Part shown: positions 60,339-63,467 of the stretch, piece after piece
Numbering within the stretch: the stretch's first letter is position 1
How the letters are laid out: every line of letters begins with the position of its first letter
Sequence record: PQ438393.1
Strand: one strand, 5' to 3'
DNA from: Escherichia phage vB_Eco_J-01
Length of the DNA: 64,000 nt
Translations under genes and position numbers: made by a program
Notes under the pieces: generated by a model
Told to the model about the DNA's origin: nothing
The model's database searches: none
The model's input: only the letters and a program-made list of their open reading frames with translations

Positions 60339-61466
60339 TTAAAACACACTTGCCAAAGTTGCACCATTGGTGATAGTTGGTTCCAGAACAATACGGAAAG
60401 AATCTTCTGGATCGTCACTAAACACAACGATTTTACCGCCTGTAATAAGATCTGCTTTCATTTTTGTCGCATTCAATGGAATTCGAGCATCGCCTTCATC
60501 ATCAAAAACCACGTAAGAGCTATTAGCAAGGGCTTCTTTAGAATCTGCATCACTTGGAGATGACAAGTACACGTCTAGTGTGCACGAGCCACCTAAAAAG
60601 ATTGCAGGTGTGAAGTTATGCCAACTAGATACCCAGCTAACTTTCTGAAGTTTCCCATTAATAACAACGCTGCTGATATCCCACTTATTACCACCACCCA
60701 AAGAAACGCCCATCATAGAGATGCATTCTTTAAAGGATAAATCAGGGTAGAAATTAAGTTCTTCTACTATACCTTGGATCACATCAAAGGACAACTCTAA
60801 ACTTACATCCCAAAGCCTTTGGAAATTATCAAAGTGTGCTTTGTTATCCAGGTTTTTATCTAAATAGTCAATCATAGTTTCTAGTGAGATTTTATCATAA
60901 TTAAAATTATAAAACACACGACTAGGACGATTTAGAAAGAATTCAGAGATAAAGCCACTGTTTTTAGTTAGAATAAACAGTTTATTACCACTGCCAGTAC
61001 CATCTAACAAAGTGAGAAGTGCTTCTTGATCTTGTTTCTTCTCATATACTTTATCAAATTCATCAAAAATAATCACTGCTTTGTCTGTGATCTTGCTAAT
61101 AAGTTCAATGAAATTAGCATCACTGTAGGCTTGAGTAACCATAATAGTTGGAATACCTTCTTCTACAAGGTCACGACTAATGAGTTTGGCTAACATAGTT
61201 TTACCACTGCCCTTAGTGCCTGTCAGGAGCAAACCTGTATTTTTACCTTGTGCACTCCGGCGATGGAATGTACGAATAACGTGATTTGCTCGTTTTTCTG
61301 TTTCACCATACAGAACATCCGGTACACCTGTTAGATTACCACGGCTTAAAAAGTAATTGCCAAGGGGATCACGACTAACAGTATAGAATCCAGGTGGAAG
61401 ATAGTTAGATTCCACGCCCATATCTTTATTTACACTTACAATATCACCATAAATCGTGTATTTCAT
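60339..61466 (-). CDS. AAA+ ATPase
   Basis: Walker A GTKGSGKT, Walker B IIFDEFD; about 90 aa N-terminal extension. Confidence 0.65.
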   Translation of the reverse strand: MKYTIYGDIVSVNKDMGVESNYLPPGFYTVSRDPLGNYFLSRGNLTGVPDVLYGETEKRANHVIRTFHRRSAQGKNTGLLLTGTKGSGKTMLAKLISRDLVEEGIPTIMVTQAYSDANFIELISKITDKAVIIFDEFDKVYEKKQDQEALLTLLDGTGSGNKLFILTKNSGFISEFFLNRPSRVFYNFNYDKISLETMIDYLDKNLDNKAHFDNFQRLWDVSLELSFDVIQGIVEELNFYPDLSFKECISMMGVSLGGGNKWDISSVVINGKLQKVSWVSSWHNFTPAIFLGGSCTLDVYLSSPSDADSKEALANSSYVVFDDEGDARIPLNATKMKADLITGGKIVVFSDDPEDSFRIVLEPTITNGATLASVF

Positions 61467-61477
61467 TTTAACCCCTT

Positions 61478-61915
61478 TTATTTTTGTTGAGATGAACGAA
61501 TTAAATCAGCAGCAAATTCAATCAGATACACTTTTGGTGCAATAATGATTTTTAGCCAATCAAAATTCGAAAAGAAAATAACAAATCCTAAAAAGAAAAA
61601 GAAAGCACAGACAACAAGGCCAACAATAGGTAAAGCAGATACTTCACCATAGCGATCTCGTGACCACAGGCATTCTTTATCTTTAATTGCTTTTACGAGG
61701 TTCCGCACAGCAATAAAAGTAATAAACATAAAGCAAATACTAAAAAGTTGCCATAAACCTGCGGATACTGCTTTCCACACTAATAATTGATGGATTACTT
61801 CTGGAATTTGTTGTTTTCCAAACTCTACAACATCACTCATTGTTTGAATAGTGACGTTAACCATGTTCAGAAGTACATCCGTTGCTTTATCTGCGATTGC
61901 GTTTGTTTTACTCAT
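61478..61915 (-). CDS. integral membrane protein
   Basis: ORF track; two long hydrophobic stretches. Confidence 0.5.
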   Translation of the reverse strand: MSKTNAIADKATDVLLNMVNVTIQTMSDVVEFGKQQIPEVIHQLLVWKAVSAGLWQLFSICFMFITFIAVRNLVKAIKDKECLWSRDRYGEVSALPIVGLVVCAFFFFLGFVIFFSNFDWLKIIIAPKVYLIEFAADLIRSSQQK

Positions 61916-61929
61916 TCTTTATTCCTCAC

Positions 61930-62103
61930 TTACCTTTTAAGGAAACCAATCATAATGAAGAACCACATCCAGGCAGGAGAGATAATAAAGCCAAAGAAAC
62001 CGCAAATAACCGCTTTCTTAATCTCTTCCAGACAACCCACCAGGAAAAGAACGAGTGAGACTACAATCCAGATAGCCATAAATACTGTAACAAAGAAACT
62101 CAT
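61930..62103 (-). CDS. small membrane protein, 57 aa (not in ORF track)
   Basis: ATG after GGGAGAAAGG; hand-translated; two hydrophobic segments. Confidence 0.45.
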   Translation of the reverse strand: MSFFVTVFMAIWIVVSLVLFLVGCLEEIKKAVICGFFGFIISPAWMWFFIMIGFLKR

Positions 62104-62123
62104 ACCTTTCTCCCGTCTGTATT

Positions 62124-62375
62124 TTAAAATTCAACCACCACTTTATCGAGGTGCTCTGCTTCAACTTGATCTAATGTTAACACCTCAACTAAACCCTTGT
62201 CAATACCTAATTTAATAACATCAACATATTGTCCAAACAAATCCTGGATAGATATCTTGTGTTCGACAACAACAACCACTTCATTCCCTTTTGTGAATTC
62301 TCTCCATACACGTCCACATTTGAAAATAAAGTCTGCTTCATCTGCTGTTATCATTTTAGGTTTGATACTTAACAT
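62124..62375 (-). CDS. hypothetical protein
   Basis: ORF track; ATGA overlap. Confidence 0.45.
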   Translation of the reverse strand: MLSIKPKMITADEADFIFKCGRVWREFTKGNEVVVVVEHKISIQDLFGQYVDVIKLGIDKGLVEVLTLDQVEAEHLDKVVVEF

Positions 62376-62713
62376 TATAAAACTCCGTACTCTGGTTCAA
62401 TATTATGCTTACGACAAATGGCATCCCAACGCTCATTACCAAAACTTCTTCCATGTAGTGCATCGTATGCGAAATGTTCTGCCAACCACATTACTACACC
62501 ATCTGGTTCAGTGTCAAGCGGAATTCGAAACTCTCGATCATAACGCATACGGAGAACAAACTCATTACCGTCTTCCAGCAGGTGCATATGACTTTTAGCT
62601 CGTGATGCCAAATCGAAGAAAGGAGGTTCATCGTTCCAAACGTGACGCTCAACTTCAACACCATGATCAACTACCAAAGTGGCAATTACTTCTCTCATTT
62701 CTTTACTAAACAT
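62375..62713 (-). CDS. hypothetical protein
   Basis: ORF track; AGGAGGG RBS. Confidence 0.5.
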   Translation of the reverse strand: MFSKEMREVIATLVVDHGVEVERHVWNDEPPFFDLASRAKSHMHLLEDGNEFVLRMRYDREFRIPLDTEPDGVVMWLAEHFAYDALHGRSFGNERWDAICRKHNIEPEYGVL

Positions 62714-62811
62714 ATTAAAGCCCTCCTAATTTAATAGTCCACTCAACACCTGTTAGATAACTTCTTTACACAAGTATACTAAGAACATATAAGTGATTTT
62801 ACCAGATATGT

Positions 62812-63165
62812 TTAGCTCCACAAATTATGGAAATACTTAGCAAACAAAATACGACCTTCTAAACGCTCTTGCCGTTGTTTTTCATTAACTTCTTCAGGTG
62901 GAGTTGAATCTTTAAAAGAGGACTCCATTTTTTCAAGAATTTCTAACCAGTGTTCTGCTGCTCGTTCTTCCATATAAGGTAGATAGTCACCTTTAGCGTG
63001 TGGGTACATCCGACGAAGTAACCCACTAGGAATTTTAACATTGTTTGTGGCTATCACTTTTGCACGATATGCAGAAAGTGCGTTGTAGATCAGTTTACTT
63101 AGTGTCACATCCAGATCAAGAAGATCACTCTCTTCAAATTGAATTTCATCGTGTACAATTTTCAT
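62812..63165 (-). CDS. hypothetical protein
   Basis: ORF track; AAGGAGAG RBS. Confidence 0.5.
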   Translation of the reverse strand: MKIVHDEIQFEESDLLDLDVTLSKLIYNALSAYRAKVIATNNVKIPSGLLRRMYPHAKGDYLPYMEERAAEHWLEILEKMESSFKDSTPPEEVNEKQRQERLEGRILFAKYFHNLWS

Positions 63166-63176
63166 ATCACTCTCCT

Positions 63177-63467
63177 TTATAGTAAAACACGTTTTGCACT
63201 GCTTGGTGCATTGTCGAACATGTTTATCACTTTGTCAAGTTTGTGTATTAACTCGTTCGTAATGTTCCACTCTTTGTATGATCTCCATTGTTTCTTATTC
63301 TCACCTACCTGGTGTAAAACTTTGATTGGTGCATTCAAACGTACATTGCGTTCTTTGTCCTCTTCAAAAGAGGCTAACCATTTTTCGTTATGCCCATGAA
63401 CAGCAATAATAATGCCAAAACCATCAAAAGTTTCTGTAATATTCTTAGTTGCTAGTGTGATGTTCAT
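63177..63467 (-). CDS. hypothetical protein
   Basis: ORF track; AAGAGG RBS. Confidence 0.5.
   Translation of the reverse strand: MNITLATKNITETFDGFGIIIAVHGHNEKWLASFEEDKERNVRLNAPIKVLHQVGENKKQWRSYKEWNITNELIHKLDKVINMFDNAPSSAKRVLL

Follow-up and report, generated by a model that had tools for sequence, protein, structure and literature searches.

A row of accessory genes with a soluble phage-family AAA+ ATPase in a phi92-like Escherichia phage

Gene content of the array

The 64,000-nt stretch of Escherichia phage vB_Eco_J-01 analyzed here (record PQ438393.1; hereafter the window) contains seven co-directional open reading frames (ORFs) on the minus strand of 63467-60339. Four of them encode proteins of unknown function, two encode proteins with two predicted transmembrane helices each, and the last encodes a 375-aa AAA+ ATPase. 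The original prediction had described the same set of genes, and ORF calling, PHROG matches, hydropathy and the Pfam model PF00004 agree with it. It had also joined the membrane proteins and the ATPase into one unit with a suggested role in superinfection exclusion or at the host envelope. Our analysis favours another reading, with a probability of roughly 0.55: the region would be a row of independently evolving accessory genes that includes a soluble AAA+ remodeller of a phage family, and it would not encode a membrane-ATPase machine. The features of the array, in the order of reading, are as follows.

63177-63467, minus strand: g96, 96-aa soluble protein, DUF7325 / phrog_9016 (PF24011 1.7e-19; PHROG 2e-35)
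62812-63165, minus strand: g117, 117-aa soluble protein, phrog_16602 (PHROG 1.2e-70)
62714-62811, no strand: gap of 98 nt between g117 and g112, an indel and rearrangement junction
62375-62713, minus strand: g112, 112-aa soluble protein, phrog_11295 (PHROG 8.4e-56)
62124-62375, minus strand: g83, 83-aa soluble protein, phrog_4868 (PHROG 6.1e-34)
61930-62103, minus strand: g57, 57-aa protein with two predicted transmembrane helices, phrog_22950
61478-61915, minus strand: g145, 145-aa protein with two predicted transmembrane helices, phrog_3054
60339-61466, minus strand: AAA+ ATPase, 375 aa, phrog_2376, classical clade by its motifs and fold, identical to phi92 gp221
60302-60323, minus strand: GC-rich hairpin resembling an intrinsic terminator, flanked by A and U runs (free energy -15.9 kcal/mol)

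All seven genes possess an ATG start codon preceded by a Shine-Dalgarno-like motif, and the intergenic spacing ranges from -1 to 20 nt, with the 98 nt between g117 and g112 as the sole exception; the start of g83 overlaps the stop of g112 by 1 nt. Every one of the proteins matches a PHROG family (E-values 2e-35 to 7e-108), and the seven genes are also annotated as coding sequences (CDSs) in phages with ~96% identity. A Kyte-Doolittle scan of the seven proteins found hydrophobic segments in g57 and g145 only, two potential transmembrane segments in each. The array forms part of a very long minus-strand run of small genes that extends back to ~40000, and the earlier placement of these genes in an accessory region of a large lytic phage is supported.

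The region 58000-64000 displays 95-97% nucleotide identity to Escherichia phages of the genus Justusliebigvirus (Stephanstirmvirinae), with complete coverage in phage ALITA only, and the window is accordingly classified as that of a phi92-like Justusliebigvirus. Among the small soluble proteins, g112 is kept in Justusliebigvirus and Phapecoctavirus, and g83 is the most widely retained small gene, being found in eight of the fetched ATPase loci, including L013. Searches of g96, g112, g117 and g83 against PDB sequences gave chance-level matches only, and g117 matched no model of Pfam, NCBIfam or PADLOC. For six of the seven proteins, PADLOC returned nothing or noise (PtuB, 0.0039); for the ATPase its matches were confined to the P-loop region, with E-values of 8.5e-4 or weaker.

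The AAA+ ATPase

The ATPase is 100% identical to phi92 gp221 and scores 38.9 bits against PF00004 AAA (cut-off 21.2). An AlphaFold (AF2) model with a mean predicted local distance difference test score (pLDDT) of 86.7 predicts a five-stranded N-terminal beta domain, a linker helix, an AAA core, a helical lid and a C-terminal beta domain, with the following limits.

Residues 1-45: N-terminal beta domain
Residues 77-190: AAA core
Residues 195-252: helical lid
Residues 262-363: C-terminal beta domain

The catalytic motifs are intact and were compared across 46 homologues. In the Walker A motif, G83-T-K-G-S-G-K89-T, residues G83, G86, G88 and K89 are invariant and T90 is nearly so; in Walker B, I-I-F-D135-E136, both acidic residues are invariant. 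Sensor-1 N169 and the arginines R180 and R183 of the second region of homology (SRH) are likewise invariant, within a motif N-R-P-(G/S)-R. Such a motif is the hallmark of the SRH in classical AAA proteins. The loop that follows strand beta-2 carries an aromatic residue (F, Y or W) at position 114 in 38 of the 46 homologues, with x-G/D after it; position 116 is G in 29 of the 46, but the middle residue is small or polar, and the ATPase of the window reads Y-S-D. On this alignment, the family appears to keep a pore-loop-like element with its aromatic residue at 114.

Foldseek searches of the model against the PDB conform to the motifs. Each of the best 50 matches is a classical AAA protein; Bcs1 ranks first, ahead of proteasomal Rpt subunits, YjoB, FtsH and NSF, and the E-values of the top matches run from 3e-9 down to about 5e-7. 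The core and lid of the ATPase superpose on those of Bcs1, Rpt, Bacillus subtilis YjoB, the AAA module of FtsH and the D domains of NSF, and these proteins share with it the Walker A and B motifs, sensor-1, the two-arginine SRH and, apparently, an aromatic residue in the putative pore loop. The C-terminal domain is predicted as a beta-rich fold for which no relative was found in the PDB. By motifs and predicted fold, then, the protein is assigned to the classical AAA clade. Homology to a core replication or packaging protein was what the original prediction had named as evidence against itself; profile and fold searches point to classical AAA instead.

Several names given to this family in databases were rejected. 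phi92 and BASEL annotations call it "FtsH-like protease" or "ATPase or Zn metalloprotease", but it lacks both a transmembrane anchor and the HEXXH motif: no hydrophobic segment reaches the hydropathy threshold, HEXXH is absent from the sequence, and Peptidase_M41 is not among the best 25 of the 32 Pfam families matched. The replication names such as DnaC come with NCBIfam scores well below the curated cut-offs (Hda 29.8 bits versus 194.8; PRK08116 27.5 versus 189; IstB 19.9 versus 200). In the literature, no functional account was found for phi92 gp221, for the early genes of Phapecoctavirus or for the combination of NadV with an AAA protein.

Distribution of the ATPase family

A total of 372 phage records were matched by the ATPase family in tblastn searches, 132 of them with more than 60% identity. 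The carriers comprise all Stephanstirmvirinae-like phages, many Herelleviridae, Grimontviridae, Lahexavirus, jumbo phages and others. PHROG 2376 homologues such as Salmonella SE131 gp139, proteins of Erwinia jumbo phages and the "AAA ATPase" of Herelleviridae belong to the same family and possess the same three-domain layout. The model superposes almost end to end on BFVD homologues from phages of Erwinia, Salmonella, Agrobacterium, Proteus and Lactobacillus (TM-scores 0.6-0.76), and the C-terminal sequence diverges to 10-14% identity within the family. By these near full-length structural matches, the three-domain layout is a family trait despite this divergence. A scan of prokaryotes with one genome per species (185,579 species) found 40 ATPase loci, almost all of them on contigs of metagenome-assembled genomes. 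We thus classify the family, from its distribution in sequence records, as a phage family and not as a component of bacterial defence. Homologues in EF24C, 949 and SE131 lie adjacent to tRNA genes, unlike the ATPase of the window, where a tRNA scan found no tRNA gene over the whole length.

No second copy of the ATPase was found within the window, and Phapecoctavirus records carry a single copy. A paralogue of 386 aa is present in Justusliebigvirus and in a related clade of Klebsiella phages, ~16 kb beyond the end of the window. Its identity to the ATPase of the window is 47% over residues 3-256, and the C-terminal domains of the two are unrelated. The paralogue (4998-6158 in fetched loci L017 and L019) stands directly after the anaerobic ribonucleotide reductase genes NrdD-NrdG.

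Membrane proteins and their pairing with the ATPase

Neither g57 nor g145 matched a named family of Pfam, NCBIfam or PADLOC; in PHROG they matched families of unknown function and, weakly, "membrane protein" (4.7e-4). Their association with the ATPase was examined in 86 fetched ATPase-bearing loci in which ORFs were called, the transmembrane calls being made by a simple hydropathy threshold and the ORF calling in metagenomic loci being heuristic. A transmembrane segment is present in the co-directional ORF just before the ATPase in ~13 of 80 loci (~16%), compared to 17.6% of all flanking ORFs, and no recurring membrane-protein family was found among the clustered neighbours from the 86 loci. 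The paralogous ATPase has no transmembrane neighbours. Thus the claim that the membrane proteins and the ATPase make up one unit is not borne out: a transmembrane upstream neighbour is no commoner than the background, g145 travels alone, and the slot is variable.

The slot varies among related phages. Sequence homologues of g57 were detected, among the fetched loci, in the four Justusliebigvirus loci only. Homologues of g145 adjoin the ATPase only in Justusliebigvirus and the Klebsiella-type clade, which has two g145 paralogues; in locus L013, three ORFs without transmembrane segments separate the g145 homologue from the ATPase. In Phapecoctavirus, the slot upstream of the ATPase is occupied by a non-homologous protein of 118-128 aa with a cleavable-looking signal peptide (L003 3615-4001; L012 4573-4932), and the g57 slot by two transmembrane proteins of 53-54 aa that are not homologous to g57. 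The two small membrane proteins are lineage-specific cargo of this variable slot upstream of the ATPase.

The g145 family has a distribution of its own. It matched 164 phage records, 109 of them at less than 60% identity, in lambdoid, P22-like, Vibrio and other phages; more than 100 of the records come from lineages that are missing among the matches of the ATPase. Vibrio accounts for 57 records in this search and is outside the top ten organisms of the ATPase search. The lambdoid and P22-like proteins SPN9CC_0015 and HK639_44 are 28-35% identical to g145 over more than 90% of the length and likewise have two transmembrane helices, although their phages differ from the window in being temperate, 40-50 kb in size and without the ATPase. 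HK633, SPN9CC and HK639 carry their homologue in the pL operon immediately after N, in a neighbourhood with sieB and ral, and the SPN9CC copy adjoins sieB; SieB itself has no sequence similarity to g145. The pL operon just after N is a classic location for exclusion, anti-restriction and moron genes. The location mildly favours a role of g145 itself at the envelope or in exclusion, and it lends no support to a joint machine with the ATPase. From its occurrence in sequence databases, g145 is regarded as an independently mobile membrane-protein family. As a side observation, the HK633 homologue (L089 3501-3857) spans two CDSs, HK633_045 and HK633_044, which suggests a frameshift or a mis-annotation.

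Rearrangement and boundaries of the array

Comparison with blastn revealed that part of the array has been rearranged among close relatives. The segment concerned and the gap that it contains are listed below.

62817-63688, no strand: inverted segment of 872 bp, comprising g117, g96, the divergent gap and the first 100 nt of the plus-strand gene
63468-63587, no strand: divergent intergenic gap between g96 (minus) and a 59-aa plus-strand gene from 63588, a presumed bidirectional promoter

The genomes of phi92, PaulScherrer and cardinal carry the segment inverted between its two flanks, so that g96 and g117 point away from the ATPase; the window and ALITA share the other orientation. The junctions fall in 62622-62817 (left) and 63688-63753 (right), and the breakpoints are inside coding sequence. 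In the phi92-type genomes, the first protein of the leftward row is a chimera of 183 aa, phi92 gp217, which is composed of the start of the 63588 plus-strand gene and the C-terminal part of g112, and the 5' end of g112 differs from it. Phapecoctavirus has the same orientation as the window, and the window orientation is therefore probably ancestral. A switch by a site-specific invertase was considered and rejected: no long inverted repeats were found at the junctions, where only short, imperfect ones of 12-17 nt are present, so that such a switch is not indicated. The gap between g117 and g112 also accommodates, in ALITA, an extra 83-aa gene brought by a 223-bp insertion (L001 10718-10969). 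With g96 and g117 turned round in the phi92-type genomes, the seven genes do not make up a fixed unit.

At the downstream end, a terminator had been proposed at 60303-60326. A stable hairpin does exist there, but its actual position, 60302-60323, is slightly offset. Its sequence is AAAACCCGC-UUCG-GCGGGUUUU, its z-score against shuffles is -3.1, it starts 16 nt after the stop codon of the ATPase, and the U tract 3' of the stem is weak. At the other end, the divergent promoter expected at ~63470 did not materialize: a search of the minus strand in the gap 63468-63587 gave no sigma-70-like promoter, and over the region 20 promoter-like matches were found versus 22 expected from shuffles, which is no excess over chance. 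Because no promoter signal exceeds chance, the terms "divergent promoter" and "operon" are founded only on gene orientation and spacing.

Genes beyond the hairpin

Two genes follow the hairpin, both of them outside 60339-63467.

58861-60264, minus strand: homing endonuclease, 467 aa, with four CapR zinc-finger repeats and a C-terminal T5orf172 domain
58309-58860, minus strand: NADAR ADP-ribosylglycohydrolase, 183 aa (PF08719, 125 bits versus a cut-off of 35.1)

The first of these had been predicted as a zinc-ribbon gene of a defence island. It matches PF21817 CapR in four stretches (4.7e-46), the endonuclease family phrog_681 (5.7e-89) and, at residues 368-454, PF10544 T5orf172, the last of these marginally (20.5 bits versus a cut-off of 20). 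The architecture of CapR with T5orf172 has been described for T5orf172 homing endonucleases (PMC10448857, PMC8096241), and the gene is a selfish element of that kind (PMC10448857) rather than a defence gene. The protein has 467 aa in the window, ALITA and PaulScherrer and 390-397 aa in phi92 and two IMG/VR relatives, which is consistent with gain or loss of CapR repeats.

The NADAR protein is identical at 182 of 183 residues to that of Bas60/PaulScherrer (bas60_0111). Experiments with AdfN-Bas60 showed that it neutralises DarT1 and allows DarTG1-sensitive phages to plate again when it is expressed on its own, with no need for other phage factors (PMC11825919). At this level of identity, we regard the NADAR of the window as equivalent to AdfN-Bas60, the known anti-DarTG1 factor. 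The proposal of a defence or anti-defence island thus stands in part: NADAR is its anti-DarTG1 member, but the seven array proteins match no defence model above noise. The two genes beyond the hairpin belong to the AdfN-Bas60 and CapR/T5orf172 groups, and nothing links them in function to the seven genes.

Two other observations were made in the course of the comparison. Further downstream, 57000-57750 is a GC-rich patch (up to 0.50 versus ~0.37 around it) with several terminator-like hairpins on both strands and a lone 88-aa ORF on the plus strand (57229-57495) that is annotated in ALITA, phi92 and PaulScherrer as well; ARAGORN found no tRNA in the patch. Five "Campylobacter phage" records (MG065656; for example C3, host C. 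jejuni) are ~99% identical to genes of E. coli Justusliebigvirus, and their host labels are doubtful.

NAD and ADP-ribose genes near the ATPase family

The NADAR gene starts ~1.5 kb downstream of the stop codon of the ATPase, and a Macro-domain gene is found ~1.8 kb downstream of the Stephanstirmvirinae paralogue. A neighbour family of 164 aa was considered as NrdG and rejected, since the family is that of the Macro domain. In addition, NadV (NAMPT) lies directly upstream of the ATPase, or within 2 kb of it, in 12 loci (L024, L043, L045, L047, L053, L058, L061, L066, L067, L072, L079 and L087) that make up one metagenomic clade, with NMNAT-Nudix and Macro genes nearby; this neighbourhood is one of NAD salvage (NARP2-like). 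The ATPases linked to NadV form a single clade with 51-86% identity, and the adjacency was therefore downgraded as functional evidence. When the ATPases are clustered at 50% identity, 3 of the 13 clusters have an NAD or ADP-ribose gene within 5 kb, a proportion that comes with no whole-genome background rate. In SE131, a gene annotated as ribose-phosphate pyrophosphokinase is located ~3 kb downstream of the ATPase homologue (L004 8120-8804) and could belong to an NAD-reconstitution pathway. Atd1, an anti-TIR factor reported in Justusliebigvirus, was also considered and set aside as a MazG-like enzyme unrelated to the region.

Discussion

The seven genes are best explained as accessory genes that evolve independently of each other. 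In this arrangement, the ATPase would assemble into a ring, and ATP hydrolysis together with a putative, conserved aromatic pore loop would drive the remodelling or unfolding of a cytoplasmic protein of the host or the phage during takeover, with the two beta domains recognising the substrate. Both small membrane proteins would act on their own at the inner membrane, and the array is presumed to be co-transcribed and expressed early. Several points weigh against this explanation. What the ATPase acts on, and which role it plays in the biology of the phage, is pure inference. The closest solved fold, Bcs1, is a membrane-anchored translocase. Within Stephanstirmvirinae, an envelope-directed protein, either with two transmembrane helices or with a signal peptide, is always encoded directly upstream of the ATPase, though the genes are non-homologous, and this could reflect a lineage-specific functional link that is diluted in family-wide statistics. 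The test of pairing itself depends on transmembrane calls from a simple hydropathy threshold and on heuristic ORFs in metagenomic loci.

These points lead to the alternative closest to the original prediction, in which g145, g57 or both would recruit the soluble ATPase to the inner membrane as a split analogue of FtsH or Bcs1, and the complex would extract, translocate or remodel envelope proteins for superinfection exclusion or envelope takeover. The three genes are indeed adjacent, co-directional and 11-14 nt apart, FtsH and the best-matching Bcs1 are both membrane-anchored classical AAA proteins, an envelope-directed product precedes the ATPase in every Stephanstirmvirinae lineage examined, and relatives of g145 stand beside sieB in a P22-like phage. 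We nevertheless consider such a machine unlikely, as transmembrane neighbours are not enriched across the ATPase family (16% versus 17.6%), g145 and the ATPase are each widespread without the other, and the paralogous ATPase has no membrane neighbours at all. The upstream protein of Phapecoctavirus, moreover, is predicted to be secreted and, once exported, would be out of reach of a cytoplasmic ATPase, and neither Pfam, PHROG nor PADLOC gave matches to known superinfection-exclusion (Sie) or abortive-infection (Abi) families. A different partner, NADAR in place of the membrane proteins, is assumed if the ATPase acts in counter-defence, either by unfolding a host immune protein or by supporting enzymes that reverse ADP-ribosylation or restore NAD+. 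The proximity of the proven anti-DarTG1 factor, of the Macro-domain gene beside the paralogue in the same genomes and of NadV with NMNAT-Nudix and Macro genes in one metagenomic clade speaks for it, as does the restriction of the family to phages and to their accessory regions. It remains doubtful all the same: such genes are near a minority of the ATPase clusters (3 of 13), the NadV adjacency may be synteny inherited within a single clade, between the ATPase and NADAR lie a hairpin terminator and a homing endonuclease gene, and AdfN-Bas60 works when expressed alone (PMC11825919). Less probable still is an accessory role in replication as a helicase loader or a clamp-loader-like ATPase, corresponding to the names "DNA replication protein DnaC" and "putative DNA replication protein" that some sources give to homologues. 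PHROG clamp-loader and DnaC-like families (1e-8 to 1e-6) and the NCBIfam Hda and DnaC-like models are matched weakly, and the paralogue and some homologues are near ribonucleotide reductase genes; against this, the NCBIfam scores are far under the curated cut-offs (Hda, 29.8 versus 194.8 bits), the matches are confined to the P-loop core, and the two-arginine SRH and the solved structures indicate the classical clade rather than initiators or clamp loaders. The row of independent accessory genes with a soluble remodeller is accordingly preferred.

Most of the region is ordinary accessory content of phages, already annotated in more than 100 genomes. Its value lies first in a large, phage-restricted family of three-domain AAA+ proteins with intact catalytic motifs, which is concealed behind misleading database names such as "FtsH-like protease" and "DnaC". 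It lies further in a family of proteins with two transmembrane helices that occurs both in lytic phages of the phi92 type and in lambdoid pL operons and is a tractable candidate in the study of exclusion or of the envelope, and in the neighbouring NADAR gene, which can be labelled as a known anti-DarTG1 factor. A more specific proposal, which we put forward as a long shot, is that the ATPase is a phage-only, three-domain AAA+ unfoldase in counter-defence that may dismantle host immune proteins or complexes and is maybe tied to conflicts over NAD and ADP-ribose. It is raised because each of the two paralogues of phi92-like genomes has a gene for an ADP-ribose hydrolase less than 2 kb downstream, NADAR for one paralogue and Macro for the other, and because a distant clade of the family directly follows NadV. 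If it is true, the family would represent a novel type of anti-defence enzyme, driven by ATP, that many large lytic phages carry.

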